Shown: positions 1,378-22,571 of the stretch, one piece after another
Numbering within the stretch: the first letter of the stretch is position 1
Layout of the letters: each line of letters begins with the position of its first letter
DNA from: Intestinimonas sp. HCP28S3_D6
GTDB lineage: Bacteria; Bacillota; Clostridia; Oscillospirales; Oscillospiraceae
Direction: 5' to 3'
Assembly (NCBI RefSeq): GCF_052065695.1
Contig: NZ_JBQHTM010000008.1
Location: 1-24,000 of the forward strand
Length of the DNA stretch: 24,000 nt
Program-made: the position numbers and the translations under genes
The notes under the pieces: model-generated
Seen by the model: the letters and a program-made list of their open reading frames with translations, nothing else
Told to the model about the DNA's origin: nothing
Database searches by the model: none

Positions 1378-1381
1378 AAAG

Positions 1382-1418: not shown

Positions 1419-1422
1419 TGCT

Positions 1423-2330: not shown

Positions 2331-2360
2331 CACTTTTTGAGCCAAGCCACCATAGATAAG

Positions 2361-2390: not shown

Positions 2391-2434
2391 CTCGAAGCTA
2401 CCTAAAGTCGAAAAGTGCCTGAAATCAAGGGCTT

Positions 2435-4126: not shown

Positions 4127-4221
4127 CTCACAATCCTCATTCGTGCCACAGCTATGGCACCTTTATGTATCCTTACTCCGAAGCTCTTTCAGAGTAAGGT
4201 TTGGACACATTTCACACGATT

Positions 4222-4250
4222 ATTATATCATGCCGTTTTAGCTTTTTCAA
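4222..4250 (-). promoter_or_regulatory. Near-consensus sigma-70-type promoter upstream of the recombinase gene.
   Basis: On the minus strand: TTGAAA (4250-4245), a 17-nt spacer, then TATAAT (4227-4222). It lies about 95 nt upstream of the recombinase ATG (4126). The leader contains hairpins at 4143-4160 and 4171-4199. Confidence 0.5.
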
Positions 4251-4402
4251 TAGTGTCCTCTGGCTGTTCGGGAATATTCGCAGTTCCAGCAGTTTCTTCC
4301 CCAAAACAGTGCGGCGGCTCTGGAAGATTGTCAATGTCCAGAACCGCCGCATATTTTTCTATTAAGTTGGCAAGCAAATCGGCAAAGCCGCTCCACTCAT
4401 CC

Positions 4403-5392
4403 TTATTCCAATCCGCTATAATGGTTTACCTCCTGTTTTTTACTGCCACGCTGTGTGTACGCCCGGATAATCTCCGGAGGGATACGGTCAAGAATCCCTT
4501 TCACCCGTTCATAATCGCTTTGCAGCCTTGCCTCCTGCAACTTCTTGACGGTACTCTGCTGCTGACTCTTTTCCAGCGCTTCCGCTAAATCATCGTTTTT
4601 CTTTTTTAGCGCCTTTTTCTCGGATTCAGCCGTGGTAAAGCACTTCTGATATTTCTTCATCTGCGTTTCCATCGCCGCCACATCTGGGATATATTCCTCC
4701 AGAAATGCTGCGATTTGCGCTGTCCGCTCCTTGTAGTTGGTAAATTTCACATCGGAAAGCATTGCATCCAGCTTTTCCATCTGCTTTGTCAGACGGGTCA
4801 TCTGTTTGAACACTCTCGGCGGGATATGGTCACGGCCCGTCTCGCTGGCACTCTCACCACGCTCCAATACCGGATACTTCTTGACCATGTGTTCCCAGAA
4901 CTTGTCTTGCCACCATGTCAGCTTTTTCTTGTTGCCTACGATCTCCTTGGCGCTGAGCCGCTTGTCCTCTGTCAACGGGACAAAAGAAAGGTGCATATGG
5001 GGCGTTTTCTCGTCCATATGCACCACGGCGGATATAATGGTTTCGGGGGATTGGTTCTGTCGGATAAACTCCAACGCATCATTGAAGAATTCCTTGATCT
5101 CAGCCCGTTTCTTGCCCTTGAAAAATTCCGGACTTGCGGTGATCAGCGCTTCTACCACACGAACACTGTCAGAGCGAGTGCGGCATCCGGCTGCAGCAAT
5201 CTGCCGTTCGGACTCTGCCCGGTACTTTCTTTCCGGCTTAACAAGGTGGAAATTCAAATGACTGCGGCTGGTATCAATATCCGGATTGCTTGCGTACTCT
5301 TCTTTGGTACGCTCATTGTGGGCTTCAATGCGCCCGATCTCCGGCCCCTTATACTTGGCAAATCTCAAAATAGCAAACTGTCCCTTTTCCAT
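4403..5392 (-). CDS. MobV-family (Mob_Pre) relaxase.
   Basis: N-terminus FAILRFAKYKG...IEAHNER and metal motif VVHMDEKTPHMHLSFVPL are typical of Pre/MobV relaxases. The likely start is the ATG at 5392 (MEKGQFAIL); the ORF track extends it to 5416. Confidence 0.9.
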   Translation of the reverse strand: MEKGQFAILRFAKYKGPEIGRIEAHNERTKEEYASNPDIDTSRSHLNFHLVKPERKYRAESERQIAAAGCRTRSDSVRVVEALITASPEFFKGKKRAEIKEFFNDALEFIRQNQSPETIISAVVHMDEKTPHMHLSFVPLTEDKRLSAKEIVGNKKKLTWWQDKFWEHMVKKYPVLERGESASETGRDHIPPRVFKQMTRLTKQMEKLDAMLSDVKFTNYKERTAQIAAFLEEYIPDVAAMETQMKKYQKCFTTAESEKKALKKKNDDLAEALEKSQQQSTVKKLQEARLQSDYERVKGILDRIPPEIIRAYTQRGSKKQEVNHYSGLE

Positions 5393-5479
5393 TATTTTTC
5401 CCGACCTTTCTGCCATACGATGTCATACCGTGGTACGTTTGGTACGGGTGGTACATGTATTTCCGGGTCACTTTCGCTT

Positions 5480-6808
5480 TTATAGAAACGGTCTTTGCAA
5501 AAGCTCAATGCCGACAAAACCTCTGGCGAACTTCCCACCGCCGATATTGACCTTATTTGTGTATTCAAGGTGATAGTGGCTCTCATTCTGTTTGAGGAAG
5601 GAGCAGAAGCGCTTTTGCGAAAGGCTGCTCATGGCGTTATCGTCACACCACAGCTTGTAAACAGCATACAGGGCTTTGGAGCTGACTTCGTAATCTGCCT
5701 TGAAGCGGATATACCCTTCGGAACCTAAAAAATCGATGATGTTGTTGCCGTCCGATACCGCAGCCTCCATGTTGTCCTGCGCCGACTGACTGAGTGTAAA
5801 CCTGTAATCGTTGGCAATCAGGCGGTGCAGGCCCGTGAGTGCCCACAGGAAAATGCCCTCTGCTTCGGCGCACATCTTTTCCGCAATATACGGATCGTCT
5901 CTCCGATTCGGGTCTTTTTCTATGGTGGAAAGGATAATTTGTCTGCGGAAAAAACCCACGCTGTGGTCATTGAGAGATTGCAGGACGCCGTTGCCCAAGC
6001 CGATAAAGCGTACATACAAATCGCCCTGGTAGCTCTGCTGTCCCTTTTTCTCCAGATCCATCGGCAATTCTGCAGTGATGATTGCCTTGATATGATTGGT
6101 CTGGGGCAAGGCTTCCAGCTTCATATCATCGTCCAGCATCACAAGCTCATGTTCCAGATCAGCCCGGGCAAAAGGGCTTGTCTCCACCTTTGCGATACTG
6201 CCTGTGTTCATGTTGCTGCCCAGCAGCGCACGAAGGACAATGCCAATGCGGCTTTTGCCCTCGCCGCCCTTGCCGATCAGCAAAAGCATCTTCTGTCCTT
6301 TGGTGGAGGGAATAAAGCAGTATCCCATAAATTCCTGCAAGGTCAGGATGTCCTCCGGCTCCAAAAGCTGAGACAAAAAATGCAGCCATGTCACTGGCTG
6401 CGGAGCTTCTGGATTGTAGGAAACGGGCAGACGGTTCCGACAGAAATCCTTTTCCGGTCTGAATGTACCGTTCAGATAATAGGTGCCGTTCGCCACATGG
6501 ATGCGGTCTTGATACAGGGGCAACTTTTCGGTGCAGCACTCCATCCGCATGACATCCAACAGATTTGTGACCTTCTTTGCAATGCCACTGGTCACATAAT
6601 ACTTGATGCGGTCATAGATCACCTTTTTCAGGCGGTTTTCATCGTGTACTCTACCATTGACCGTGAAAAATGCTCCGTTTACCGTGACCATTGGATATTC
6701 CCGGAGAAATTCTTCGCAGAATATGGCTTCGTTGATTTTCTTACCGTCAAACCACGCCGGATTTTTACAGTGCGCGGTCTGCGTCATTTCATCGCTCATA
6801 GCGTACAT
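5480..6808 (-). CDS. D5/P4-family primase-associated NTPase (SF3 helicase-like).
   Basis: Walker A MLLLIGKGGEGKSR and Walker B LVMLDDD, with overall length and layout typical of phage/plasmid primase P4-family C-terminal domain proteins. Start at 6808 or 6799, overlapping the upstream gene stop (6789). Confidence 0.85.
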   Translation of the reverse strand: MYAMSDEMTQTAHCKNPAWFDGKKINEAIFCEEFLREYPMVTVNGAFFTVNGRVHDENRLKKVIYDRIKYYVTSGIAKKVTNLLDVMRMECCTEKLPLYQDRIHVANGTYYLNGTFRPEKDFCRNRLPVSYNPEAPQPVTWLHFLSQLLEPEDILTLQEFMGYCFIPSTKGQKMLLLIGKGGEGKSRIGIVLRALLGSNMNTGSIAKVETSPFARADLEHELVMLDDDMKLEALPQTNHIKAIITAELPMDLEKKGQQSYQGDLYVRFIGLGNGVLQSLNDHSVGFFRRQIILSTIEKDPNRRDDPYIAEKMCAEAEGIFLWALTGLHRLIANDYRFTLSQSAQDNMEAAVSDGNNIIDFLGSEGYIRFKADYEVSSKALYAVYKLWCDDNAMSSLSQKRFCSFLKQNESHYHLEYTNKVNIGGGKFARGFVGIELLQRPFL

Positions 6809-7397
6809 ACTCCTCTCTCTTTCTTGCGGTGTAGTCCTGGAGGGACGCAATCTTGCCATCTCTCATCAGCTCATCCACCACAGCAACACGTTCTTCCAAA
6901 TCGCCTACGACCAGAATGTCCGTCAGATATTCGATGCGATCAAGCATCTGGCAGGCTTCCACAAAACGGTCATCCAGATCATCGTCCGGCATTTTCGGGG
7001 CATACCAAACCTTCCAGTCTTCCAACAGATGCAGATAATCCGTCAGCACACGGAAGCAAAGCATTTCGTCCTCCCGGAACTGCCGGATGTGGGGATGTTT
7101 GGGTTTGCGGGGAACTGCCACCGCTTGTCCCTGTTCGGTACTGATACCGAAGTCCTCAGCCAACCTTAGCGCCGCTTCGTAGCTGCTCAGATCAAACAGT
7201 CTCGCCGCAAAGTCAATCACATCTCCCTTGGCTCCGCAGCCGAAACAAAAGAAATATTCCTCGTTCAGCTTCAAGCTCGGATGCCTGTCATTGTGGAACG
7301 GGCAGCAAGCCATGTCGTTGCGGTTGACTTTCAGCCCGTAGTGTTCGGCAGCTTGTCTTACGGGAACTGCCGCCTTGATGGTTTCAAATAGATTCAT
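6789..7397 (-). CDS. CHC2 zinc-finger primase-like protein.
   Basis: CCPFHNDRHPSLKLNEEYFFCFGCGAKGDVIDF is a canonical DnaG-type CHC2 zinc finger. ATG at 7397 lies 7 nt after GGAGG (7409-7405). Confidence 0.85.
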   Translation of the reverse strand: MNLFETIKAAVPVRQAAEHYGLKVNRNDMACCPFHNDRHPSLKLNEEYFFCFGCGAKGDVIDFAARLFDLSSYEAALRLAEDFGISTEQGQAVAVPRKPKHPHIRQFREDEMLCFRVLTDYLHLLEDWKVWYAPKMPDDDLDDRFVEACQMLDRIEYLTDILVVGDLEERVAVVDELMRDGKIASLQDYTARKREEYVRYER

Positions 7398-7565
7398 ATG
7401 CATACCTCCGTAATTAATTTGACAATTCTTGCTTGTCACCTGAATATACGGAGAAAACAGCTTTCAACCGAAAAATCCGGCACTTCTGCAAAAAAAGAAA
7501 TCGCCGCCCTGAATTTTTGCAAAAATGCAAAATACACAGGGTGGCGATTGTTCACAATATGCGCC

Positions 7566-7594
7566 TTGATATTATTCCGAAAATAGAATATAAT
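7566..7594 (+). promoter_or_regulatory. Consensus-like sigma-70-type promoter for the HTH-XRE-sigma module.
   Basis: TTGATA (7566-7571), a 17-nt spacer, then TATAAT (7589-7594), about 25-30 nt upstream of the first gene of the module. Confidence 0.55.
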
Positions 7595-7617
7595 ATTATC
7601 AGATTTAGCGAAAAGGG

Positions 7618-7833
7618 GTGTTGAGGGTGCGTTATTTATCAACTTTTGAGGTGGCGGAGAAATGGGGGATTTCTCCGCGTCGTGTAGGTGTTCTTTGTAG
7701 CCAAAACCGCATCCCCGGCGCACAGCAAGCAGGAAGCCGCTGGATTATCCCAGAAGATGCAGAGAAGCCCGCTGATGCCAGAATCAAAAGCGGCAAATAT
7801 ATCAAAGCAAAAAACAAGGAAAGGGGGACATAA
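7618..7833 (+). CDS. Small HTH DNA-binding protein (excisionase/MerR-like HTH_17 type).
   Basis: YLSTFEVAEKWGISPRRVGVLCSQNRIPGAQQAGSRWIIPEDA is the typical helix-turn-helix of small element-encoded DNA-binding proteins. The start is non-ATG (GTG 7618 or GTG 7627, after AAAGGGG). Confidence 0.7.
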   Translation: MLRVRYLSTFEVAEKWGISPRRVGVLCSQNRIPGAQQAGSRWIIPEDAEKPADARIKSGKYIKAKNKERGT

Positions 7834-7836
7834 CGA

Positions 7837-8682
7837 ATGGAGAATGTATTTTTGCCCGGTACTGTTAGACAGCGGCTTGCCGATCTGATGAAATATCACA
7901 AGGTATCTCAGACTGACCTTGCGCTAAAAATTGGATGCGGCGACAGCTTGCTCAGCCGTTTCCTAACCGGAAAGACAGACAAGATCGGTGACGAAAACAT
8001 CATCCGTATTGCTAGAGTATTCAATGTGTCCACCGACTTTCTTTTAGGCGTGACCAATGTTCCCGATAGAAAAAATTATGAGATTGAAGAGCTGGGCTTG
8101 TCAGCCCAGGCGGCACGAAACCTCTACACCGGCAAGGTTAATACACAAGTGGTCAATCGGCTCTTGGAAAGTCCCCGCTTTGCTGAGCTGACCTACATAT
8201 TGGAGCAGTATTTCAATGACACTATCGCATCCGGCTTTGCAGCTCAGAATCAGCTTTACGCTACCCTTGCCAATCTGACAAGAAGTACCGTACAAACCGA
8301 TGCAGCGAAAGAAGCTGCCAAGGACATCAGCCGTTTACGGACACCGGCATATCAGGCAGATCTCGCCACCATTGAAGCTCAATTTATGGCGGCAGTCAAA
8401 GAAGTGAAGAAAGAGATCGGTCACGATTTTACAGTACAGCAGGCCCTCACCAAAGAAGCCGCCGAGCGAATGTTTACAGAGCTTACAAAAGGTCAGGATA
8501 TGGAAAACCCCAAGGTCACACCGGAGCATGTGACCGAACTGATTATCGACAGCGTTGCCGGTATGGATGGGGTCAACCAAGAAGCACTGGACAAGCTCAG
8601 TCAGGCGTTGACCGACTTTATGCAGACCACCTTGGATCAGGCGGCAATACAGGAGAAGGACGATGAAAAACCAGAGCAATGA
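7837..8682 (+). CDS. XRE-family transcriptional regulator with a long C-terminal helical extension.
   Basis: N-terminal HTH_3 motif: RQRLADLMKYHKVSQTDLALKIGCGDSLLSRFLTGK...IRIARVFNVSTDFLLG. It starts 4 nt after the upstream stop. Confidence 0.85.
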   Translation: MENVFLPGTVRQRLADLMKYHKVSQTDLALKIGCGDSLLSRFLTGKTDKIGDENIIRIARVFNVSTDFLLGVTNVPDRKNYEIEELGLSAQAARNLYTGKVNTQVVNRLLESPRFAELTYILEQYFNDTIASGFAAQNQLYATLANLTRSTVQTDAAKEAAKDISRLRTPAYQADLATIEAQFMAAVKEVKKEIGHDFTVQQALTKEAAERMFTELTKGQDMENPKVTPEHVTELIIDSVAGMDGVNQEALDKLSQALTDFMQTTLDQAAIQEKDDEKPEQ

Positions 8683-9325
8683 GCAACTCTGCACTCTGGC
8701 ACAGAAGGGGAATAGGAACGCCCGTGACCTGCTTCTGGAAAACAATTTCGGCTTTATCCGCAAAACCGCCAACGAGATTTATTTCGGTATGAATCTGGGC
8801 GAAAGCGAACTCAGTATCGACAAAGACGATCTGGAGCAGGAGGGCTGCATCGGCTTATTGGATGCCATCCCTCGCTTTGACAGTAGCAAAGGCGCCAAGT
8901 TTCTGACCTATGCCGCACCGTCCATCCGAAACGCCATGACCGATTTGATACGGAATGCGTTTTCTCAATTTGAGCAGCGAATGACCGACACCACAGATGG
9001 ACTTGCCTTTCAGAAAATCCGTCTGGATGAAGTTGTCCCCGGCGAGGAACGGTTGCTGCGTATCGAAGCGGTTGCCGACCCGATTGCCAAATCGCCGGAA
9101 CAGATTTATGTGGAACAAGAAACATTGCGTGAACTGTATGCGGGACTCGATAGGATTGGAAAGCGAGAGCAAGCCTATCTGCTGTACCGTTTTGGCTTCA
9201 CAGACGATATAGAGCATACGATGATTGGGGCAGCAATCCACTTTAATCTGAGCGAAAGCCGAGCCAAGAAAACCGAGGAACAGGCTATGGACAACCTCTG
9301 GTTAGAGTTGCCGTGGTGGTTTTAG
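8663..9325 (+). CDS. Sigma-70 family RNA polymerase sigma factor (element-encoded).
   Basis: Region 2-like EQEGCIGLLDAIPRFDSSKGAKFLTYAAPSIRNAMTD and region 4-like REQAYLLYRFGF...AAIHFNLSESRAKKTEEQAMDNL. It overlaps the XRE gene by 20 nt. Confidence 0.85.
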   Translation: MKNQSNEQLCTLAQKGNRNARDLLLENNFGFIRKTANEIYFGMNLGESELSIDKDDLEQEGCIGLLDAIPRFDSSKGAKFLTYAAPSIRNAMTDLIRNAFSQFEQRMTDTTDGLAFQKIRLDEVVPGEERLLRIEAVADPIAKSPEQIYVEQETLRELYAGLDRIGKREQAYLLYRFGFTDDIEHTMIGAAIHFNLSESRAKKTEEQAMDNLWLELPWWF

Positions 9326-9758
9326 TGCGTGTCGCTGTGGCGGGACAGGGGCTTATATACCTCTGCTTCCTTCTCCGGTCAGTCGGATTTTGTTTCTCAA
9401 AAATCCTGCATTTGTGTCAACGCCTTTGTCACAAAATCCGCCTGCCCTACTGCCGCCGAGAAGCGTCTGTCCGCTTCAATCTGCCTATGTCGCAGATGCT
9501 GCAGCCAGCCCCTTTCCAGCGTCAGCCGGAAGCAAAGGTATAACACACTAGACTTTGCAAGCAAAATCGTGTGCCAACAGGGATGTTTCTCGCCCCTATT
9601 GGAAACCCAGAGCCAAGGGGCTGCCCCCCTCTGGACACCTCATATTTTCTTCACACGGTGGTACCCAAACTGAAAGAATCAGTTTGACACCGGTGCGAAG
9701 AAAATACAAAAGGAAGCATCTGCACATGAATCTGCAAACTGCTAATCTTCCTTTTGTC

Positions 9759-9801
9759 CTGACAATCTGAATATTAATATGGTGCAATTTCAGATTGTCA
9801 G
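9759..9801. promoter_or_regulatory. Perfect 13-bp inverted repeat at the upstream edge of the AT-rich cargo (operator or boundary candidate).
   Basis: CTGACAATCTGAA (9759-9771) and TTCAGATTGTCAG (9789-9801), separated by 17 nt (TATTAATATGGTGCAAT). The right arm contains TTGTCA (9795-9800), 18 nt before TATTTA (9819-9824). Confidence 0.4.
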
Positions 9802-9868: not shown

Positions 9869-10520
9869 TATGGAATGGATAACCAAGTTAATTGATCTTC
9901 TAAAGGTACCATTAAAAGTTCTTTTACCCTCGGCATGGCTTTTTTCATCCGCCATGACCTTATTTCCTGACAGATGGCTTGAAAAATTAGGTTTACTAGA
10001 GTGGAAAAATGAGCACCTGTTTGCTTTTGGATTAATACTTATTATCACCTCCTGCCTGATCCTGGTGTATTCATTTATTTATACGAAATCAAAAATTACT
10101 CATCTTATTTCCAAACTTTTCTTGAACAGAAATACTATGAAAAAATTTTCAAGTATGAGTGATGTTGAAAAAGCAATTATTCTCAAACTTTACCACTCGC
10201 CCGCATTTACTTGCGAACTTGACTATGGGCAGCCTGTAATAAAAGGCCTTGTTGCACGCAATTACTTATATGGTGGTGGTCAGCAATTAGTTCGAACATC
10301 CTTATATTCAACAGCGTTACCGGTAAAACTTACGCTCCAACCATTTGTTTATCAGGCACTGGATTATTACAAAGAAAAGCTATCACGAGAAATTGAAAAA
10401 ACAGAAAAAAAGATCGCTAAAACGAAAAGAGAATCAAAACTAAGCAAATTGAATTATAAACTTTATGAGCTGAAAGATTGCTATGAAGCATATTTCGACG
10501 AAAACTTGTTTAAGGAATAA
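9869..10520 (+). CDS. Membrane protein resembling superinfection-exclusion protein B (SieB-like).
   Basis: Two hydrophobic segments (VLLPSAWLFSSAMTLFP and LFAFGLILIITSCLILVYSFIY). A cytoplasmic domain follows with the ...SDVEKAIILKLYHSPAFTCELDYGQPVIKGLVARNYLY pattern, then a Lys/Glu-rich helix. This layout matches my recollection of the SieB family. ATG at 9869 is preferred over the track start at 9795. Confidence 0.6.
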
Positions 10521-10563
10521 CTCTCAAACGTAAATGCTAATAGGCGATTAATGGGGGGTAATT

Positions 10564-13500
10564 ATGGATAAAGCCACTTCAACTGAAATTATCACAACAT
10601 ACTTTAAAGCTGTATGCGACGCATACCGTCTCGGAAATGTTGAGTCATCTTATAACGCACCAATAATGGCTCTGTTCACAGATATTGGATGTGCTGCCCG
10701 TGATTTGTCTGGTGAGCGTAAAGGTCAAACCGGAGAAAATATTGATATTAAACTGTGGCACAGCGAGGAAGAAGTTACAGAAACTGAACCGTTTGCTGGC
10801 GTTGAAGTTAAAAAAGTTGGAGGCATTGACAAGAGAGCCCTCTCCCAGATCAAAATCGAAGCTGATCGGTATGGCAATGCTATTTTAACTGATAATCTTG
10901 AATGGCGTTTTTGGCGTGCTGGTGATACGGAGATGTATACCGGTTTGCGAATTATGGAATTGGTTAATGACAAACTGGTTCTAAGAGAAGATAACGTCGA
11001 GCTGTTTATTAGCCTCGTAGAAGATTTTCTGCTTCGTGATCCTGCACAAATAAAATCATCCACCAAGCTTGCTGAATATATGGCAATGCATGCTCGCACA
11101 ATACGCAGCATAATTTCTGGTATTCTTAAAGATGACGGCAATGGACAACCTCTTGTCACTGACAGTCAAAAGAGACTACCTATGTTTATAGAATTATATG
11201 GGCTATATAGCAGGATTAAATCTGACCTCCGGCCTCTCATGAACACTCGTGAATTTGCTGATATGTATGCCCAGACCATTGTCTATGGTTTATTTATCGC
11301 AAGATACAATGACACAACACCGGACTCCTTTGACAGATATGAGGCCATAAAATATCTGCAAGAAGAATCCGAACTCCTCAAACAGTTCTTCATGCATATT
11401 GCCGGAACCGGCAGAAAACACCCTACCCTTGAAGGCGTTATTGAAAAGTTGTGTTCTTTGTACCGTATTTGTAATATTTCTGCTTTGCTGGAGCGAGATG
11501 AGAAGAAGGATACGATTATCCATTTTTATGAAGAATTTCTGACTTTCTATGATCCGGCATTAAGAAAATCGCTTGGCGTTTTTTATACACCAGTTCAAGC
11601 CGTACAATATTTAGTTTCAACTGTAGATAAGATTTTGGTTGAAGATTTCGGTATTGAAGGGGGACTCTCGAATAACGAACTAATCACAACGAAAGTTCCG
11701 TGTGCACCATACAAAGTAACAAAGACCAAGTGGTCCAGCGAAATGACAGTTTCTGTACCCCGTGTAGCTATTCTCGATCCAGCCTGCGGCACTGGTTCGT
11801 TTGGTGCAGAGATCATCAAATATATTAAAAATACATATTTTTCTGGCGCTCGGTCAGCATTTTATGAAAACTACATTCAGCAGGAAAACGGCTTGCTTTC
11901 CCGCTTAATTGGTTTTGAGATTATGATGACCAGTTATGTTGTTGCGCACTTAAAAATTCGTCGCACAATTGATGAAACGCTCGGTCATTTGCCAACAGTT
12001 CAGCTCCCCACAAACATTTTTTTGACAAACACCCTGGCACCACCCATGTCGGATTTGGAGCGAGGTGAACAGTTGACTTTGTTTGATTTCTCTGCTGCCA
12101 TTACTGAGGAAGCCTACAACGCAGATACATGGAAAGCCCGTCGCCCCATCAAGGTAATCATCGGTAATCCTCCATATCTGGCGGCATCTACAAATCCATA
12201 TGATATTTCGGCATACAAAACTGAAACGGATGGTGTGACTGATTTTGGTGAAAGAAAGCACTGGCTGAATGATGATTATGTAAAATTTTTCCGTTTCTCC
12301 GAACAGATCATCGATAAGAACAAAGAAGGTGTGCTTGCCTTTGTATCCAATAACGGATACTTAGACAATCCGACCTTTAGGGGTATGCGTGGCAGCCTTC
12401 TGAGATCCTTTGATAAAATCTATATCGTAAATCTTCACGGCAGCGCAAATAAAAAGGAAACCGCTCCCGACGGAAGCAGGGATGAAAATATCTTTGATAT
12501 TATGCAAGGTGTATCTTTGTTCATCGGAGTCAAAAAAACAAAGAAAACAGATTGGGCAAAAGTATACTATACGGATATTTGGGGAACCCGGGAAACCAAA
12601 CTGGAGGCCCTTGCCAAAGGCGATCTGACATTCACTCTGTTGAAGCTGGATCATAAGATGGCGTACTTTATTCCTTTCGGAAATAGCGACAAAGATGCCT
12701 ATGATAAAGGGGTTAGTATTGCAGAACTGTTTCCGATAAGTGTGACAGGAATTGTTTCTGGCAACGATAGTGTAGCCATTGCACCTACAAAAGCCGAATT
12801 AATTAGACGGATGGATATTGTTAAGCATGCCACAGAAGAAAAAGATATATTCAATCTATGGGGGAGATTCAGCCGTGGACAAACAGCAGAAAAGATCCAA
12901 AATGATGTCCTATCAGAAGGCAAAATAACTCAGATTTCTTTCCGCCCGTTTGATTCTCGATGGACATATTATTCTGGCAATTCCTGCGGATGGGTTCTTT
13001 GGCCCAGAGAAAAGAGCACCATGGGGCATTTGCTGGCCGAACCGACGAGCCCTATTGGAGCCAATATTGGTTTGGTATTCTGCAAAACCTCCAGAAACTT
13101 CTTTTCTCCGTTTGTGTCCAGGAATATCATCGCACATCGGCTGTTCTCTGCTATGTGCGAGATCACCTACATCGCACCACTTTATCTTCGTTCAGAGTCG
13201 GAACTGACTGGCGAAAGCTGGACTGCAAATTTGAACGATGATGCATTTAATAAATTAACCCAGTATTTGCCTACAAAGCCCACACCAATTGAGGTGTTTG
13301 ACTATGTGTACGGCATTCTGCACGATCCGGTTTACTGCGAGAAATACGAGCAGTATCTTTGCAGAGATTTTCCACGTGTTCCGGTCATCAATGAGCCAGA
13401 GGAAGAAAGAACCGACGGTACATTTTTCGTAAGTGAAGATTTGTATAGAGAATATGTTGTTACCGGCGAACGGCTTAGAAAACTGCATCTTATGCAAATC

Positions 13501-13797
13501 AAGGTGCCTGCCGAGCTTATGTTAGATCCTAACACACCTGATGATATGGAAATCGGAGCCGTTAAATACAAAAACGGTGTGCTTCAGTTAAACGCCAACA
13601 AACACATTACCGGTATTTCTCAGGATGTATGGCAATACCAAATTGGCGGACATCAGGTGTTGGACAAGTGGTTTAAGGAACATAAGGGCGAAACACTCAC
13701 TATTGATTCCTTTACTCACATTGAAAATGTGGTGGGATTGCTTGCGGAGACAATCAACTTGCGAGAACATATGCGAAGTTTGCACAAGCAAATTTAA
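10564..13797 (+). CDS. Type IIG/PglX-like N6-adenine DNA methyltransferase with a putative N-terminal PD-(D/E)xK nuclease domain and a type-ISP-like C-terminal specificity domain.
   Basis: MmeI-like N-terminal pattern: D61 (NIDIKLW), E81-x-K83 (GVEVKKVG), then QIKIEADRYG and ILTDNLEWRFWR. Motif X is FYEEFLTFYDPALRKSLGVFYTP. SAM motif I is DPACGTGSF (nt 11776-11802). Catalytic NPPY is at nt 12166-12177. C-terminal hallmarks are FRPFDSRWTYY, VFDYVYGILHDPVYCEKYEQYLCRDFPRVP and WQYQIGGHQVLDKWFKEHKG. No helicase motifs. Confidence 0.85.
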   Translation: MDKATSTEIITTYFKAVCDAYRLGNVESSYNAPIMALFTDIGCAARDLSGERKGQTGENIDIKLWHSEEEVTETEPFAGVEVKKVGGIDKRALSQIKIEADRYGNAILTDNLEWRFWRAGDTEMYTGLRIMELVNDKLVLREDNVELFISLVEDFLLRDPAQIKSSTKLAEYMAMHARTIRSIISGILKDDGNGQPLVTDSQKRLPMFIELYGLYSRIKSDLRPLMNTREFADMYAQTIVYGLFIARYNDTTPDSFDRYEAIKYLQEESELLKQFFMHIAGTGRKHPTLEGVIEKLCSLYRICNISALLERDEKKDTIIHFYEEFLTFYDPALRKSLGVFYTPVQAVQYLVSTVDKILVEDFGIEGGLSNNELITTKVPCAPYKVTKTKWSSEMTVSVPRVAILDPACGTGSFGAEIIKYIKNTYFSGARSAFYENYIQQENGLLSRLIGFEIMMTSYVVAHLKIRRTIDETLGHLPTVQLPTNIFLTNTLAPPMSDLERGEQLTLFDFSAAITEEAYNADTWKARRPIKVIIGNPPYLAASTNPYDISAYKTETDGVTDFGERKHWLNDDYVKFFRFSEQIIDKNKEGVLAFVSNNGYLDNPTFRGMRGSLLRSFDKIYIVNLHGSANKKETAPDGSRDENIFDIMQGVSLFIGVKKTKKTDWAKVYYTDIWGTRETKLEALAKGDLTFTLLKLDHKMAYFIPFGNSDKDAYDKGVSIAELFPISVTGIVSGNDSVAIAPTKAELIRRMDIVKHATEEKDIFNLWGRFSRGQTAEKIQNDVLSEGKITQISFRPFDSRWTYYSGNSCGWVLWPREKSTMGHLLAEPTSPIGANIGLVFCKTSRNFFSPFVSRNIIAHRLFSAMCEITYIAPLYLRSESELTGESWTANLNDDAFNKLTQYLPTKPTPIEVFDYVYGILHDPVYCEKYEQYLCRDFPRVPVINEPEEERTDGTFFVSEDLYREYVVTGERLRKLHLMQIKVPAELMLDPNTPDDMEIGAVKYKNGVLQLNANKHITGISQDVWQYQIGGHQVLDKWFKEHKGETLTIDSFTHIENVVGLLAETINLREHMRSLHKQI

Positions 13798-13812
13798 AAA
13801 AACGGGGGAAAC

Positions 13813-15000
13813 ATGGATAAGATAATTAAAATTCCAGTGGATACAGGAAAGGTTGTAATTTCAGAAGATATAAAGTCCATACTCAAGAATTTGTTTTCCG
13901 GATGCAGAGTAAGTTTCCTGCTTGGTGCTGGCTTTTCTGCAAATCTGTTAGGCACTTTGAGTAATAATGAGGTAATTTTTGAAGCATTACAAAAATATCA
14001 AGTCAAAAATGAAGATGAACGAAAAAAGATCACTATTCTATCTGCATTTTTGTATTGGTCGTTCTTCATTAGATGTATCGAACCGATCTCCTCCAAAGTA
14101 TCGACATATGATCCCTCATTTGCCCCTTACAAAGAATTTGGAGATATTGTGTACCGGATTTTTGCCGAAAGAGGAAATCCAGCATTGGATCGACAGTTCA
14201 ACATCTTTACAACAAATTACGACCCAATAATTGAGCTGATCTTTGACCATTCAACCTGTATATGCAATGATGGCTTTGAAGGGAGAATTGAACCTCGATT
14301 TTCCACCGATAACTACTCAAAAACGTATTATAGGCAAGCAGTATTCTCCAACAGGAAAGCTGAAATCCCATCTGTGAATCTTTTAAAGTTGCACGGGTCT
14401 GTTACTTGGAGCACAGACATCATTTGGGGAGGTATTGAGTATCAGCAATATCGAACCCAAATACATCACTTTACCAAAGAGCACTCTACATTGTTTGATG
14501 TAGCTATGGTATCAAGAATTGATGCTCATTTTACGGCTGATCAACCGGATGAAGCAAATAAACAAATTCAATCTTTGCTTGCGAGTACTATTTTTGATTC
14601 ATTACTTGCCAAAGAGGGAGACTATGACAAATTCATTCAATCGTACAAAAATTCCTTCCTAATTGTGAACCCAACAAAGGAAAAATTCAGTGATACCCTA
14701 TTAAACAAAAATTATTATGAGCTTCTGCGCATTTTCTCCAATGAGTTGGAAAAAGAGAACTCACTTCTAGTAGTCAATGGTTTTTCTTTTAGAGATGAGC
14801 ACATCCTTGATGTAGTAAAACGCTCCATGGTTAATCCATCCTTGAAAATACTCATTTTCACATATCAAGAAACAGCGATTGGGGACTTTCAAAAACTATT
14901 CGGTGAGGCGAAGAATAATAACATTACTTATATTACGCTGGATGGAGAAAAGCTGTCTTTGGATTATTTCAATCAGATTTTGTCACATATCCATTCCTAA
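13813..15000 (+). CDS. SIR2-family (SIR2_2-type) putative NAD+ hydrolase, partner of HerA.
   Basis: FLLGAGFS (aa 35-42), TTNYD (aa 133-137), LLKLHGSVTWS (His194) and VVNGFSFRDEHI. It starts 15 nt after the methyltransferase stop, preceded by GGGGG. Confidence 0.85.
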   Translation: MDKIIKIPVDTGKVVISEDIKSILKNLFSGCRVSFLLGAGFSANLLGTLSNNEVIFEALQKYQVKNEDERKKITILSAFLYWSFFIRCIEPISSKVSTYDPSFAPYKEFGDIVYRIFAERGNPALDRQFNIFTTNYDPIIELIFDHSTCICNDGFEGRIEPRFSTDNYSKTYYRQAVFSNRKAEIPSVNLLKLHGSVTWSTDIIWGGIEYQQYRTQIHHFTKEHSTLFDVAMVSRIDAHFTADQPDEANKQIQSLLASTIFDSLLAKEGDYDKFIQSYKNSFLIVNPTKEKFSDTLLNKNYYELLRIFSNELEKENSLLVVNGFSFRDEHILDVVKRSMVNPSLKILIFTYQETAIGDFQKLFGEAKNNNITYITLDGEKLSLDYFNQILSHIHS

Positions 15001-15020
15001 AAGGAAAGAGGTGAATCGGT

Positions 15021-16847
15021 ATGAACGATTTTTATAAAATCGGACAAGTGATTGAGGTACGAGGTCAAAAACTTCGCATACGTGTTTTTGAAAACAAGAA
15101 CAGCAATATTCTGATATACCAGGGACACGTTATTAAAAATGTGTCCGTCGGCAGCTTCGTGAAGATTCCAAAAGGATTCAGCAACATCATTGGCCGCATA
15201 GAGGGTGAATACATCCAAGAAACTAAGCCCACAGGTGAGAACAATGGTCAACTTCGTTTTTCAAAAGAGAGCGAGACCATTGATCGCATTATCGAAGTTA
15301 GCATTATGGGTGTGTTGAATGATGGACGTTTTCAGAGAGGTCTCATTGACATTCCGCTGGTTTTCTCCGATGCATATATGCTTACAGACATAGAAGTGCA
15401 AAAGATTTTCGAGTTTAGCTCCGATTTAAGCACTTCTGTGTGTATTGGCTCTATTAACGATTACAAAGAAGAAAAGCTTTTCATCTCGGCAAATTCTCTT
15501 TTTGCCAGTCATATAGGAATCTTCGGAAATACCGGAAGTGGCAAATCAAATACATTGGCCAAGATATACACCGAGTGCTTTCAACGTTTTAAAGGAATGC
15601 CTGGATTCGCTAAAAGCAGATTTCTTCTTATCGATTTTAATGGAGAGTACACCCAAGCCTTTGATGACAGCAAACGAGTATATCGACTTTCAACAAGAGT
15701 TGATACAGGAGATTCAATCCCTATTCATCAATCGTTTTTGGAAGATGTGGAACTCTGGTCAATAATATGTGAGGCAACAGAAAAAACTCAGAAGCCTTTC
15801 TTAAGCAAGAGCATTGACTTATACCGCCGTTTGCGTGAGACTGACAATCTTATGGCCTATATTCGCGGGATGTTACGGAATCTGCTTCTCCGATACTATG
15901 ATGACCCTCAAATATTCTTGCGTCAACTAACAGGACTTAAGACGATTCTTACATTGCTATTTGTTGATGCCGAACCTGGAATCAGAATTTTAAATAGCAT
16001 CCAACTTCGTGCGCAGGGTACAAAATTCTACCGTACATCTGCTGAGGGTGAGCACTGGGCAAACAGCCTCGATGACTACGAACAACAATTTGTATCTGCT
16101 ATTTTGGATTCAGTGTTTATTCCGGCTAATTGCAAAGATCCGGATGAATATATGATATTTGAGTATGCTCTACGGTATAAATACTTGGATTCTTTGTGTT
16201 TGCAATATATCAACGAAGAACACGTTGGCCCACTGATCTCAAGATTTGAAAATCGTGTAAAACGAGTAAAGCGCCTTTTCAGAATATGCGAGAACCCCCC
16301 ATCTGATTGGTTAGCGGTATATTCATTGGTTGATGTTAATGTAGAATTCAAAAAGATTGTACCTTTAATTATCTGTAAGTATTTCTATGAACGCCAACGG
16401 CAGAATTTCAATGGTAGTAGTCTACATATTATCATTGATGAAGCACATAATGTCTTGTCCACGACATCTGAACGAGAAAGCCAGACATGGAAAGATTACC
16501 GCTTAGAAACTTTCGAGGAAATTATCAAAGAGGGACGAAAATTCGGAACATTCTTAACTATATCGAGCCAGCGTCCCTCTGACATCTCGGAAACCATTAT
16601 TTCTCAACTACATAACTATTTTATTCATAGATTGGTTAACAATGAAGATATACGGGCAATAGGTAAAGCTGTGGCATTCATTGACAATACTTCATATGAA
16701 ATGATCTCGGTACTCCCGCAAGGAGCATGTATCTTTACTGGTGTCGCTTCCAATTTTCCTGTTTTGGTGCAGGTCGATTTGCTACCCAAACAAAAGCAAC
16801 CACAGAGTAGCACCATAAATCTTACAGAGTTATGGAAAGAACCTTAA
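15021..16847 (+). CDS. HerA-like (DUF87/FtsK-HerA superfamily) ATPase.
   Basis: N-terminal barrel-like IGQVIEVRGQKLRIRV...GSFVKIP. Walker A GNTGSGKS (aa 169-176). Walker B HIIIDEAH (aa 469-476). Then EGRKFGTFLTISSQRPSDIS...LHNYFIHRL. It starts 20 nt after the SIR2 stop, preceded by GAGGTG. Confidence 0.9.
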   Translation: MNDFYKIGQVIEVRGQKLRIRVFENKNSNILIYQGHVIKNVSVGSFVKIPKGFSNIIGRIEGEYIQETKPTGENNGQLRFSKESETIDRIIEVSIMGVLNDGRFQRGLIDIPLVFSDAYMLTDIEVQKIFEFSSDLSTSVCIGSINDYKEEKLFISANSLFASHIGIFGNTGSGKSNTLAKIYTECFQRFKGMPGFAKSRFLLIDFNGEYTQAFDDSKRVYRLSTRVDTGDSIPIHQSFLEDVELWSIICEATEKTQKPFLSKSIDLYRRLRETDNLMAYIRGMLRNLLLRYYDDPQIFLRQLTGLKTILTLLFVDAEPGIRILNSIQLRAQGTKFYRTSAEGEHWANSLDDYEQQFVSAILDSVFIPANCKDPDEYMIFEYALRYKYLDSLCLQYINEEHVGPLISRFENRVKRVKRLFRICENPPSDWLAVYSLVDVNVEFKKIVPLIICKYFYERQRQNFNGSSLHIIIDEAHNVLSTTSERESQTWKDYRLETFEEIIKEGRKFGTFLTISSQRPSDISETIISQLHNYFIHRLVNNEDIRAIGKAVAFIDNTSYEMISVLPQGACIFTGVASNFPVLVQVDLLPKQKQPQSSTINLTELWKEP

Positions 16848-16850
16848 AAC

Positions 16851-16886
16851 CAGAGCCCACCGATCATTGTTGACCAGTGGGCTCTG
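16851..16886. terminator. Hairpin between the convergent herA and a small minus-strand gene.
   Basis: CAGAGCCCAC (16851-16860) pairs perfectly with GTGGGCTCTG (16877-16886), with a 16-nt loop. It starts 3 nt after the herA stop. The T-run is weak on the plus side; TTTT follows on the minus side. Confidence 0.45.
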
Positions 16887-16898
16887 CCATATTAATTT

Positions 16899-17144
16899 TC
16901 AATCCATCAACCGATACTCTGGTGTGCCTTTCACATACCGTTCCAAGTCGCCGCCAAGAACCAGTTGCGCATATTCCAGAGGTTTATTATAGATCAGCCA
17001 GTCCAGCTCTGACCGCTGATACATATTGTCGGCAACCTCGTTCTCCACGGCGATCGTATCAATGGTAATCATGCTGCCATCGGTAAATTTCAGTTCAACA
17101 CAGGCAGTATCCATATTGAACTCACAGGAAAACAAGCGCTCCAT
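16899..17144 (-). CDS. Small conserved hypothetical protein (81 aa) at the IME right end.
   Basis: ATG at 17144 (MERLFSCEFNMDTACVELKF...) follows GAGGTGG (17156-17150), which overlaps the stop of the rlmD tail ORF. I recall this sequence as a recurrent small protein of clostridial elements, but cannot name the family with certainty. Confidence 0.65.
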   Translation of the reverse strand: MERLFSCEFNMDTACVELKFTDGSMITIDTIAVENEVADNMYQRSELDWLIYNKPLEYAQLVLGGDLERYVKGTPEYRLMD

Positions 17145-17154
17145 ATTCGCCACC

Positions 17155-18777
17155 TCAAATCATCCCGAAGTGCTTTAATGCCTCCATAATCGCCTTTTCC
17201 TTCTCTGGCGGGCATTGGGGCTGCTTAGATTCCTCAGACTTCGGCTTGTTGTAATTCTCCCGCTCAATAATGCCGCATTTCTGCTTCACCTGTGCGATAT
17301 ACAAATTGCTTACCTTCAAACCACTATGTTCCAGTACATAATCTTTGATCTCTTGATAGGTAGCCTTTTTCTCCGCAGCCGTCAAATCCAGCTCATCCAT
17401 ATCCAGCTCAACTTCGATATGCTGCGTCGATTTTAGTTTGGACAATAAGCATACTGTCTCCACGTGGGCGGTGCGGGGGAACATGTCCACCGCCACGGCG
17501 GTCTGGGCGGCGTAGCCCAGCTCCGCAAATCGGGCCAGGTCTCGGGCCAGGGTGGCCGGGTCGCAGGAGACGTAGACCACCCGCTCGGGGGCCATCTGGG
17601 CGATGGAGGCCACCACCTCCGGGGCCAGGCCCTTCCGGGGCGGGTCCACGCAGATGACGTCCGGCCGCAGACCCTCGGCGGCCAGCCGGGCGGCGGTGTC
17701 GGCGGCGTCGCCGCAGAAGAACTCGGCGTTGGTGATGCCGTTGCGCATGGCGTTGGCCTTGGCATCCTCCACGGCGGAGGGGACGATCTCCGCCCCGATG
17801 ACCCGCCCGGCGTGGCGAGCCATGGCCAGGGAGATGGTGCCGATGCCGCAGTAGAGGTCCACCACCGTCTCGGTGCCGGTAAGCCTTGCCAGCTCCACTG
17901 CCTTGCCGTAGAGGACCTCGCACTGGTCCCGGTTCACCTGGTAGAAGGAGGGCACCGAGATGCGGAAGGTGAGGCCGCAGAGGGTGTCCTCCAGAAAGTC
18001 CTGCCCCCACAGGGTGCGCAGCTCTTTGCCCAGCACCACGTTAGTCCGCTCCTTATTCACGGACAGCACCACCCCGGCCAGCTCCGGGGCGGCGGACCGG
18101 AGGGCCTCCACCAACTCCCGCTCGTGGGGCAGCCGGTCCCCGTTGACCACCAGGCAGCACAGGGCCTGGGTCCGGGAAAAGCGGACGAAGAGATGGCGCA
18201 CCAGTCCGGCGTGGGCCTTCTCGTCATAGGCGGGGACGGCATACTCCGCCATCCACCGCCGGACGGCGTGGGCCAGGGAGGAGGCGGTCTCCGGCTGGAG
18301 GAGGCAGTCGTCCACGTTCACCACATCGTGGCTCCGGGCCCGGAAGAAGCCGATCTTGGGCCCGTCCTTCCCCGCGGCCACCGGCAGCTGCACCTTATTT
18401 CGATAACGCTGTGTATTTTCCGCCCCCAATATCACAGAAACCGCCAGGTCCAGACCCCCTACCCGGCGGATGGCGTCCTCCACCCGGCGGCGCTTGGCCT
18501 CCAGCTCGGCGGGGTAGCTCATGTGCCGGAACTGGCAGCCGCCGCACCTGGGGTACTGGGGACAGTCGGGGTCGATGCGGTCCGGGGAGGGCGTCCTGAC
18601 CCCCGCCGCCTTGCCCCAGATGGCGGAGCGGCCCACCTTTAAAATGAGGGTGTCGCACACCTCGCCGGGGAGGCCGCCGGAGACAAAGACCACCTGGCCG
18701 TCCAGATGGGCGATGCCCTCACCGTTGAGACCGATGGACTCGATGGTCAGGGGCAGAATGTCATTTTTCTTGGGCAT
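17155..18777 (-). CDS. rlmD: 23S rRNA (uracil-C5)-methyltransferase, RlmD/RumA family. The last ~100 codons are supplied by the IME.
   Basis: TRAM-like N-terminus, Cys cluster CPQYPRCGGCQFRH, SAM-binding VVDLYCGIGTISLA and VYVSCDPATLARD. ATG at 18777 lies 7 nt after GAGGTG. Codon usage switches from GC3-rich to AT-rich at about 17460. Confidence 0.9.
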   Translation of the reverse strand: MPKKNDILPLTIESIGLNGEGIAHLDGQVVFVSGGLPGEVCDTLILKVGRSAIWGKAAGVRTPSPDRIDPDCPQYPRCGGCQFRHMSYPAELEAKRRRVEDAIRRVGGLDLAVSVILGAENTQRYRNKVQLPVAAGKDGPKIGFFRARSHDVVNVDDCLLQPETASSLAHAVRRWMAEYAVPAYDEKAHAGLVRHLFVRFSRTQALCCLVVNGDRLPHERELVEALRSAAPELAGVVLSVNKERTNVVLGKELRTLWGQDFLEDTLCGLTFRISVPSFYQVNRDQCEVLYGKAVELARLTGTETVVDLYCGIGTISLAMARHAGRVIGAEIVPSAVEDAKANAMRNGITNAEFFCGDAADTAARLAAEGLRPDVICVDPPRKGLAPEVVASIAQMAPERVVYVSCDPATLARDLARFAELGYAAQTAVAVDMFPRTAHVETVCLLSKLKSTQHIEVELDMDELDLTAAEKKATYQEIKDYVLEHSGLKVSNLYIAQVKQKCGIIERENYNKPKSEESKQPQCPPEKEKAIMEALKHFGMI

Positions 18778-18792
18778 GGGGGAACACCTCAT

Positions 18793-19584
18793 TTAAGATG
18801 GGATGGGCGAGACGGCCAGCAGGTCCTGGAGGTCGGCGTAGGGGAGGGTGAACTCCAGCAGGCCGGCGGCGTAGGGGGCCAGAGTGTCGGGCTGGTAGTA
18901 GATCACCAGGCCCTGGTCGCTGAGATAGAAGTAGGTGTCGTTGAGCTCGGCCTCCAGGACCGCCCGGGAATAGCCGGCGTCAGCCCCCTTTTGCTCCAGC
19001 AGGTCCAGCACCCGGGTGCGGCCGGCGTCGGGGTCGGTGAAACAGTCGTCCAGGGCCAGCTTCTCTCCGGTGGAGAGGTCAAAGGTCTCGGAGAACTGGA
19101 AGTTGGAGGGGTGGGCCGCGCCGGTGACCGAGTTGGCGTAGTAGCTGCGAACGATGCTGACCAGGTCTTCGGTCTGGAGGGTAAGGCGGTAGCTCATGGA
19201 CTCACCGTAGGGCAGGAAGTCCTCCCCCATGGCCTGGGCCACCTCGTAGTCTCCGGCGGCGTAGCCGGCCAGCTCGGAGGCGTCGCTCAGGTAGGCCATG
19301 CCCTCGGCGGCGTAGTAGTCCTGGATCTTCTGCCAGGCGGGTACCGCACTGGCATTCTCAATGTCGGGGAACACATAGTCTACCGACATGACCACCGTGC
19401 CGTCGTCGGCGGTGAAGTCCTTGGCAAAGGTCTGGTCGGTCCACACCAGCTCCAGAGGGGCGGTCTCCTCCGGTGCCGAAAACTCCACAAGGGCAGGGGT
19501 GGGGGTGGCCTGGGGCTCTGCCGGAGCGCAGGCGGCCAGGGTGAGGACCAGGGCTGAGGCGAGCAGCAAGGGTCTAGCGCGCAT
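18793..19584 (-). CDS. Lipoprotein with a DUF4163/DUF3298-like body.
   Basis: MRARPLLLASALVLTLAAC (signal peptide plus lipobox) follows AAGGAAGG. The body contains the ...NSVTGAAHPSNF... pattern seen in DUF3298 domains. The track ORF (to 19833) is over-extended upstream. Confidence 0.75.
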   Translation of the reverse strand: MRARPLLLASALVLTLAACAPAEPQATPTPALVEFSAPEETAPLELVWTDQTFAKDFTADDGTVVMSVDYVFPDIENASAVPAWQKIQDYYAAEGMAYLSDASELAGYAAGDYEVAQAMGEDFLPYGESMSYRLTLQTEDLVSIVRSYYANSVTGAAHPSNFQFSETFDLSTGEKLALDDCFTDPDAGRTRVLDLLEQKGADAGYSRAVLEAELNDTYFYLSDQGLVIYYQPDTLAPYAAGLLEFTLPYADLQDLLAVSPIPS

Positions 19585-19802
19585 AGGGACCTTCCTTTCT
19601 GTCTTGGGGCGTGGGGCGTCGATCTGGCAACATTGTACCACAGCCCCCCGCCGCCCGGCTACCTTATTTTGAAAAAGCCCTTCCGCACAGGACGGGCCCC
19701 GGCGGCGGCGGGGGATTTGTTCACAATTTTCTCTTTTTTCTTCCGGCCGGGTATGATATACTAAACTGATTCCAGAACCAATTAGGAAAGGTGTACGATA
19801 AA

Positions 19803-22552
<2,750 letters not shown>

Positions 22553-22571
<19 letters not shown>

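Follow-up and report, generated by a model that had tools for sequence, protein, structure and literature searches.

Exchangeable anti-phage cassettes probably stacked in the cargo region of an integrative and mobilizable element from gut Oscillospiraceae

Organization of the four-gene block

The window analysed here, a stretch of 24,000 nt from Intestinimonas sp. HCP28S3_D6, contains an integrative and mobilizable element (IME) of the serine-recombinase type from gut Oscillospiraceae. The cargo at the rumA-proximal end of this IME is a block of four genes encoding a SieB-like membrane protein, a type IIG restriction-modification (RM) enzyme, a SIR2 protein, and a HerA protein (Table 1). Judged from comparison with related loci, the block is likely to represent a stack of exchangeable anti-phage cassettes (the type IIG RM enzyme, a Nezha/Gao19 pair, and a SieB-like accessory) in a cargo hotspot of the IME. 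Of the two readings offered in the original prediction, the stacking of independent systems thus essentially matches the comparative data, whereas a single system in which the RM enzyme gates SIR2-HerA does not.

All four genes are co-directional and, according to the open reading frame (ORF) table, are separated by gaps of 43, 15, and 20 nt, exactly as predicted. The predicted block coordinates hold as well, except for the start of the first gene, which is situated at 9870 instead of 9869: the frame from 9869 contains 13 stops, and all 34 homologues of the SieB-like protein begin with MEW, in agreement with the ATG at 9870. The block is indeed AT-rich and distinct from the IME backbone, with a GC content of 0.396 compared to 0.487 in the backbone and 0.654 in the host (right) flank, and the cassettes also differ among themselves (0.343 in the SieB-like gene, 0.420 in the IIG gene, 0.361 in SIR2, and 0.393 in herA).

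Upstream of the block, the predicted inverted repeat exists, with perfect 13-nt arms, CTGACAATCTGAA and TTCAGATTGTCAG, around an AT-rich spacer of 17 nt (fold dG -18.4, z -4.5). It may serve the cargo slot as operator or promoter, and the sequence from 9511 to 9801 is 85% conserved in a related locus (L001; L numbers denote related loci or contigs), where it precedes a different gene. The hairpin predicted behind herA is likewise real and folds stably (dG -22.1 kcal/mol, z -5.7, none of 200 shuffles equally stable). Since it recurs in three loci with other cargo (L001 at 5500-5531, L002 at 4828-4861, and L003 at 7289-7321), it is part of the IME backbone and not of the SIR2-HerA cassette. Between the window and these three loci, G and C are exchanged within the stem in a compensatory manner (AGAGCCCAC...GTGGGCTCT versus ACAGCCCAC...GTGGGCTGT), as would be expected if the stem is functional, and the hairpin is probably a bidirectional terminator closing the cargo before the convergent DUF6061 gene.

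The junction between the IIG gene and SIR2 reads TAA-AAAAACGGGGGAAAC-ATG and includes a GGGGG Shine-Dalgarno sequence; fold analysis of this junction found no hairpin. Consensus scans inside the block remained at chance level for both promoters (19 versus 21.1 expected) and terminators (5 versus 6.2 expected) and are uninformative. Concerning the single transcription unit that had been proposed, the operon-like layout is therefore confirmed, whereas co-transcription is plausible only; from its layout, the block is probably read from one upstream promoter.

Table 1. Features of the IME, its cargo, and the adjoining host gene in the window
Feature	Position	Strand	Remarks
IME backbone	2435-9325		Pfam scan; six genes
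Serine recombinase	2435-4126	-	backbone
Mob_Pre relaxase	4403-5416	-	backbone
D5/DUF5906 primase-helicase	5480-6859	-	backbone
CHC2 zinc-finger protein	6789-7439	-	backbone
HTH regulator	7837-8682	+	backbone
Sigma-70-like factor	8663-9325	+	backbone
Inverted repeat	9759-9801		arms 9759-9771 and 9789-9801
SieB-family gene	9870-10520	+	216 aa from ATG
Type IIG (IIL-like) restriction endonuclease-methyltransferase gene	10564-13797	+	1077 aa
SIR2 gene	13813-15000	+	395 aa
herA	15021-16847	+	608 aa
Hairpin	16851-16886		16-nt arms; between convergent herA (+) and DUF6061 (-)
DUF6061 gene	16899-17144	-	81 aa; final backbone gene before rumA; in gene tables of L140-L147
TRAM + U5 RNA methyltransferase gene (RumA/RlmCD-like)	17155-18792	-	host gene flanking the element

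Identity of the IIG enzyme and of the SIR2-HerA pair

The 1077-aa protein matches the PADLOC model REase_MTase_IIG (PDLC03610) at 1e-182 and, with residues 721-1049, Type_ISP_C at 3e-53; the Pfam families N6_Mtase and Eco57I are matched, too. Among solved structures, that of the type IIL enzyme DrdV (7LO5; 5e-40, residues 266-1046) comes closest, followed by the methyltransferase (MTase) and target-recognition domain (TRD) parts of LlaBIII and LlaGI. The PD-(D/E)XK residues of the nuclease are situated N-terminally (D61, E81, K83), motif I (DPACGTG) of the MTase lies at 405 and motif IV (NPPY) at 535, and 41-42 of 42 homologues, with identities reaching down to 28%, retain these motifs unchanged. 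Nuclease, N6-adenine MTase, and TRD are combined in one polypeptide, as in types IIG and IIL, and the enzyme, with its gamma-class N6-adenine MTase, would be expected to methylate host sites and to cut unmodified DNA.

Three other assignments of this protein were considered and rejected. An enzyme of type ISP, as represented by LlaGI and LlaBIII, would require a helicase-like ATPase motor that separates nuclease and MTase; a helicase or ResIII domain is missing in the 1077 aa, and the alignment to both enzymes begins only at their MTase region. BREX is excluded because the best models are those of IIG RM enzymes and not of PglX, and because none of the partner genes (brxA/B/C, pglZ, brxL-type) occur among the Pfam-scanned ORFs (370-9325 and 17155-19833, with ORFs from 19782 onward unscanned). 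Hence, from the original label "type IIG/PglX-like", the first part stands and the second does not, the nearest relative being DrdV. MADS is excluded because its mad2 model matches the IIG enzyme (6e-11) and its mad8 model matches HerA (2e-20) only weakly, more than 100 orders of magnitude below the IIG and HerA models, and because no other mad1-8 genes are present.

The identities proposed for SIR2 and HerA are borne out. The SIR2 protein matches PADLOC PDLC04080 at 5e-59, and its GAGFS, TTNYD, and LHGS motifs are intact when aligned to 8YHX; the HerA protein matches PDLC04097 at 2e-169, possesses a Walker A motif (GNTGSGKS, 169) and a Walker B motif (IIIDE, 470), and matches the solved SIR2-HerA complexes 8YHO, 8WIV, 8XAU, and 8J4U at 1e-27 to 1e-29. 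With both genes in the same direction and the catalytic residues in place, the pair has the features of Nezha/Gao19, and SIR2 is situated directly upstream of herA in all 79 related loci wherever sequence is available. Homologous pairs form a complex of a HerA hexamer and a SIR2 oligomer, deplete NAD+, and protect against phages (PMC11472057, PMC11514289), and two-gene operons confer protection when transplanted alone (PMC11472057, PMC12322248). The pair in the window appears to be an autonomous Nezha/Gao19 pair as well, with NAD+ depletion and aborted infection as its predicted effect.

Three deviating arrangements were observed around SIR2-HerA homologues. In L064 (7590-9644), a herA gene of 94% identity is found without SIR2 upstream, the homology starting at window position 15007, i.e., 14 nt before the herA start, which indicates either an orphan gene or an assembly chimera. 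In L125 (1452-13263), AAA_27 and SNF2 helicase genes precede the pair with a gap of 13 nt, and an N6_N4 MTase gene follows it with an overlap of 28 nt at the herA stop, an arrangement that may constitute a larger composite system unlike that of the window. Furthermore, a homologous ORF of 165-167 aa lies just upstream of SIR2, with gaps of 6-59 nt, in L104/L105/L107/L112 (e.g., L107 3073-3576) and in L133 (8378-8875). It has no Pfam match and is situated in both contexts between a type II-like RM system and SIR2, with HerA only 40% identical between the two; its product might be a third component or a further accessory of RM systems.

Exchange of cassettes at gene borders

Related loci were compared from two sides. 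For the IIG gene, a genome scan yielded 56 loci, of which 28 with at least 63% identity (63-91%) and usable downstream sequence were counted; for SIR2-HerA, 79 metagenome loci were examined, which correspond to about 31 contexts after de-duplication. SIR2-HerA is found behind the IIG gene in 4 of these 28 loci (L004, L005, L006, L027), all belonging to one IME lineage and backbone. In other loci the place downstream of the IIG gene is taken by DUF6414 (L001, L002, L007), by the Dodola genes DolA and DolB (L021, with homologous genes in L016), by a 260-aa ORF and AbiU (L008), by an M78 peptidase (L013), a C5 methylase (L015), or SLFN/AlbA (L025), or by plain housekeeping genes (L018, L020, L026, L029), CPSase, Pth, and PyNP being among the housekeeping neighbours 3' of IIG homologues. 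Three of these loci (L001, L002, L021) lack SIR2-HerA even though they share the IME/rumA setting, and in L152 an IIG gene whose product is 91% identical to that of the window is followed by a protein kinase gene.

The view from SIR2-HerA is the same. The IIG family of the window stands beside the pair in 1 of the about 31 contexts and is confined to this IME and to a clade of at least 93% HerA identity. At 85-94% HerA identity, an unrelated IIG gene (PDLC03602) together with a type II S subunit gene replaces the SieB-like and IIG genes within the same IME (L057, L068), or RM genes are absent (L079); at 86-89% identity, a type I operon (hsdM-hsdS-x-hsdR) ends 30 nt before SIR2 (L075, L077, L082, L095). 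Four plasmid homologues of 37-40% identity are free-standing, with about 0.2-0.8 kb of intergenic sequence upstream and no RM genes nearby.

The positions at which homology to the window breaks off in blastn comparisons provide the strongest argument for separable SieB-like, IIG, and SIR2-HerA modules. Homology with L004, L005, and L066 is lost at 9648 and resumes at 10564, the ATG of the IIG gene. In L021, it extends from 10564 to 13784 and starts again at 17154; in L001 and L002, it extends from 10583 to 13797 and starts again at 16817 and 16851, respectively. In L057, homology begins at 13799, and L075 shares only the part from 13814 to 16897. Breaks at gene borders (10564, 13797/13799, and around 16851) imply cassette exchange.

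These data bear directly on the alternative of one integrated four-gene system, in which the 1077-aa enzyme would gate the SIR2-HerA NADase/ATPase according to the DNA that it recognizes or the methylation status that it senses. Such a system would fit the gaps of 15-20 nt, the missing internal terminator, the strong ribosome-binding site at the IIG-SIR2 junction, and the co-inheritance of the block across many metagenome contigs, and composite systems of methylation and ATPase functions do exist (MADS, MANTIS), of which the weak mad2 and mad8 matches are reminiscent. Nevertheless, we regard it as extremely improbable: IIG is found without SIR2-HerA in 24 of the 28 close loci, partly at the very same IME/rumA site, closely related SIR2-HerA pairs stand beside unrelated RM systems or none, the breakpoints coincide with the gene borders, the mad matches are far too weak, and the two-gene pair works alone (PMC11472057, PMC12322248). 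Co-localisation of IIG and SIR2-HerA, which the original prediction had proposed as a check, is not conserved beyond one recent lineage (4 of 28 and 1 of about 31).

Decayed defence genes were observed in several copies of the element. An insertion sequence (Transposase_mut) lies within the 5' end of SIR2 in L146 (11158-13859), SIR2 is truncated by IS21 (istA/istB) in L062 (256-3470), an unannotated reverse-strand ORF of 402 aa is situated between SIR2 and herA in L006 (13250-17890), herA is reduced to 59 aa in L027 (8154-8330), and the IIG gene is truncated in L063 and L072. The repeated inactivation of defence genes hints at a fitness cost.

RM genes upstream of SIR2-HerA

In 10 of the about 31 SIR2-HerA contexts, an RM system is situated directly upstream and co-directionally, with gaps of 6-100 nt. 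At least eight kinds are represented (two IIG types, IIG+S, type I twice, type III twice, AlwI type IIS, a Dam fusion, and C5), and within 10 kb on either side, 12 of 13 DNA-modification systems (12 RM, 1 BREX) are directly adjacent and co-oriented. In an unbiased Pfam scan of the flanks (111 upstream and 105 downstream ORFs), RM families rank first on the upstream side (ResIII 6, N6_Mtase 4, Methylase_S 4, N6_N4 3, D12 3, Eco57I 3). Among the 25 commonest downstream families, N6_N4 with two members is the sole DNA-MTase family, and the downstream neighbours constitute a typical island mix (TIR, KAP, YobI, AAA_5, DpnII RM with AIPR, BREX). The asymmetry of RM systems between upstream and downstream (10 versus 2-3) is marginal (p = 0.04-0.09), and functional coupling is therefore not claimed. 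As a minimal reading, the adjacency suggests at least transcriptional piggy-backing, i.e., the sharing of a promoter.

Some observations weigh against a simple stack of independent cassettes. The block of SieB-like, IIG, SIR2, and herA genes is intact on at least 119 contigs of this IME lineage, and IIG, SIR2, and HerA were kept together while the three proteins diverged by about 6-13% from those of sibling IMEs (as in L004), such that short-term co-inheritance of the block within the lineage is real. Furthermore, the RM adjacency exceeds what simple stacking would lead one to expect: it is found in 10 of 11 contexts of two HerA clades (3 of 4 in the window's clade, 7 of 7 in a clade of 59-95% identity) versus 2 of 18 elsewhere, with a Fisher p of 3e-5 that, like the clade split on about 30 metagenome contexts, is post hoc. 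This adjacency could reflect a generic functional coupling. No trigger of SIR2-HerA is described in PMC11472057, and a signal from DNA ends or from RM activity is conceivable as one.

Such a coupling would mean that, in certain HerA clades, any upstream RM system is required or strongly synergistic, the specific IIG enzyme being replaceable, for example because HerA is loaded on ends made by restriction or because SIR2-HerA serves as a guard that responds to the inhibition of restriction. Besides the variety of adjacent RM systems and the clade specificity, it would account for L106 and L109, whose HerA proteins are 95% identical and yet follow RM systems of type III and IIG, respectively; HerA-NurA, moreover, acts on DNA ends. 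A precedent for a guard within an RM operon is PrrC-EcoprrI. We nonetheless consider generic coupling quite improbable. RM systems are the commonest class of defence systems, and defence genes were first discovered by their enrichment beside RM genes, which raises the baseline; the asymmetry is modest and the clade split post hoc; other clades and the plasmid copies are autonomous, heterologous two-gene constructs work, and promoter sharing alone accounts for the layout.

The SieB-like protein

The label of the first gene as coding for a SieB-like membrane protein proved correct, with a Pfam match to SieB (PF14163) at 2e-13 (50.5 bits versus a cut-off of 26, residues 24-137), a family that all 34 homologues carry; PADLOC gave no match. 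One strong hydrophobic, transmembrane segment extends over about residues 47-72. In the AlphaFold model (pLDDT 84), which has no significant structural neighbour, the N-terminus forms long helices, and a small alpha/beta module and a coiled coil at the C-terminus complete the fold. A search with a family-specific profile hidden Markov model likewise detected no SieB-like gene in any of the 135 IIG or HerA loci, and among IIG and SIR2-HerA loci the gene is known only from this element.

Among the 11 distinct contexts of SieB-like homologues (P numbers; 39-100% identity), 10 are followed, on the same strand and within two genes, by an RM MTase gene; this corresponds to a binomial p of about 1e-6 against a generous null of 20% and covers four kinds of RM. 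These are the IIG family of the window (P0001 and, outside an IME, P0003), a type III-like cluster of the order SNF2 helicase - DUF4391 - SieB - Mod - variable gene - Res with often overlapping stop and start codons (P0005, P0007, P0010/P0014, P0011, P0034), plain type III (P0030, P0032), and a C5-methylase/NgoFVII type II system (P0018); P0004 stands without RM.

The type III-like cluster was observed in L148-L151, L154-L157, L163-L164, and L167-L168. It comprises an SNF2 helicase gene (about 1075 aa), in some copies GmrSD, DUF4391, the SieB-like gene, in some copies a gene of 210 aa, an N6_N4 Mod gene, a variable slot, and a gene with ResIII and RE_endonuc; stop and start codons overlap at many of the gene junctions. 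The variable slot is either empty or occupied by SLFN_AlbA_2/HATPase_c_4, by a Nuc_deoxyrib_tr-like gene, or by a gene of 175 aa. The cluster is apparently undescribed; literature relevant to the SieB-RM association, to PF14163, or to DUF4391 was not found, and the matches to "sieb" in PMC9035990 refer to the author name Siebor.

The original prediction had spoken of an exclusion-type membrane protein. Membership in the SieB family holds, whereas an independent exclusion system is doubtful, as the relatives are nearly always found beside RM MTases. The corresponding alternative, in which the window contains three fully independent systems and the SieB-like protein is a free-standing abortive infection (Abi) or superinfection-exclusion gene product, like prophage sieB, that merely shares hotspots with RM, is in our view rather unlikely. 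It can draw on the above-threshold Pfam match, on the context without any RM (L153), and on sibling IMEs in which IIG homologues of 91% identity presumably function without a SieB-like gene, the slot being filled by other small ORFs. It does not explain the RM MTase gene immediately or one to two genes downstream in the other contexts, nor the frequent translational coupling within the SNF2-DUF4391-SieB-Mod-Res cluster (39-68% identity). In contrast to prophage sieB, moreover, relatives are absent from 50,697 phage genomes, 2.9 million viral (IMG/VR) contigs, and 72,556 plasmids, and the gene is located in an IME or in chromosomal RM clusters.

Judged from the gene contexts, the SieB-like protein is probably an accessory associated with RM systems and not the product of a free-standing exclusion gene. 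More tentatively, and as a possibility short of an expectation, the SieB-like protein might be an overlooked RM accessory that resides directly upstream of the MTase gene in type III-like SNF2-DUF4391-SieB-Mod-Res clusters and was transferred from there to plain type III, IIG, and type II systems. In parallel, the SIR2-HerA clade of the window might need an upstream RM system for its expression and possibly as its trigger. Concerning the mechanism, we can only speculate: a membrane Abi effector or guard of the PrrC kind, controlled by RM or sensing its inhibition, is imaginable, as is a tether that holds RM at the site of DNA entry.

Setting of the element

The same IME backbone is found in L004-6, L021, L027, L057, and L140-147, and related elements occur in Pseudoflavonifractor, Lawsonibacter, and Angelakisella; an identical SieB-like protein is annotated under Faecousia sp. 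At the rumA/RlmCD-like gene, the GC content rises to 0.65-0.70. An enterobacterial origin of the element was rejected, as megablast against E. coli genomes gave no match. A description of this IME family was not met in the literature, no search having been aimed at it.

At the left end of the IME, the window contains a 335-aa ORF (370-1377, +) with the zinc ribbon and DUF4368 of a large serine recombinase and without the Resolvase catalytic domain, and adjoining it a 274-aa ORF (1423-2250, -) without Pfam match; they look like the remnant of a second element or like tandem accretion. In L141 and L142 (1-1625), two copies of the element that are identical in other respects, a GmrSD_N gene (type IV restriction-like) is situated left of Mob, where other copies hold the serine recombinase; the opposite end of the IME may thus contain another variable slot for defence genes. 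In the GC-rich host flank, two near-full-length ORFs of 926 aa (+) and 924 aa (-) overlap on opposite strands (19782-22571), one of which is probably a GC-rich-frame artefact.

Proposed interplay of the cassettes

On the reading as stacked cassettes, the cargo of the IME would be transcribed from a single upstream promoter. The DrdV-like IIG enzyme would methylate host sites and cut unmodified incoming DNA, the SIR2-HerA pair would deplete NAD+ and abort the infection, and the SieB-family protein would be an accessory travelling with RM MTases. The layers would act in series, with restriction first and NAD+ depletion as a backstop, and SIR2-HerA need not read the methylation mark of the IIG enzyme. 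The pair probably piggy-backs in its expression on whichever RM operon stands in front of it, since neither in this HerA clade nor in that of 59-95% identity does it have a promoter region of its own, whereas autonomous copies are preceded by a few hundred bases of intergenic sequence.

The gene set itself is ordinary, consisting of known defence systems stacked on a mobile element, and to call it a methylation-linked SIR2-HerA system would be a mistake. What the locus documents is a small IME family of gut Oscillospiraceae, the cargo end of which is a two-slot defence hotspot with clean exchange. If true, the SieB-RM component or the RM-riding SIR2-HerA pair would bear on how first-line restriction is coupled with second-line abortive systems.

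Comparison with known systems

With DrdV and the MmeI family of type IIL, the IIG enzyme shares the N-terminal PD-(D/E)XK nuclease, the gamma-class NPPY MTase, and the C-terminal specificity region; it differs in that this specificity domain scores as Type_ISP_C, as in LlaGI and LlaBIII. The SIR2-HerA pair consists of the same two genes with the same motifs as the structurally studied Nezha/Gao19 homologues, but is only about 20-30% identical to them. Compared to the plasmid-borne and tested pairs, which are autonomous operons, the copy in the window follows an RM gene at a distance of 15 nt and lacks a promoter region of its own. MADS, BREX, and MANTIS likewise comprise an MTase and ATPases; in these, however, both are integrated in one system, whereas here they are separable cassettes, and none of the other defining genes of the three systems are present.

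In PrrC-EcoprrI, a type I RM operon harbours an Abi effector and keeps it under control. Similarly, relatives of the SieB-like protein are encoded by small non-RM genes that are enclosed by the genes of an RM operon (SNF2-DUF4391-SieB-Mod-X-Res), with stop and start codons that frequently overlap. The likeness is architectural only: PrrC is a cytoplasmic anticodon nuclease, whereas the SieB-like protein is a membrane protein, and the two have no sequence relationship.

The overall organization is most similar to that of the defence-cargo hotspots of integrative and conjugative elements, IMEs, and satellites, with a conserved backbone, exchanging slots, and breakpoints at gene borders. The RM slot holds IIG or IIG+S and the second slot SIR2-HerA, Dodola, AbiU, or DUF6414. 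Different from the described hotspots, the carrier is here a small IME with Mob_Pre and a serine recombinase, situated beside rumA in Oscillospiraceae.

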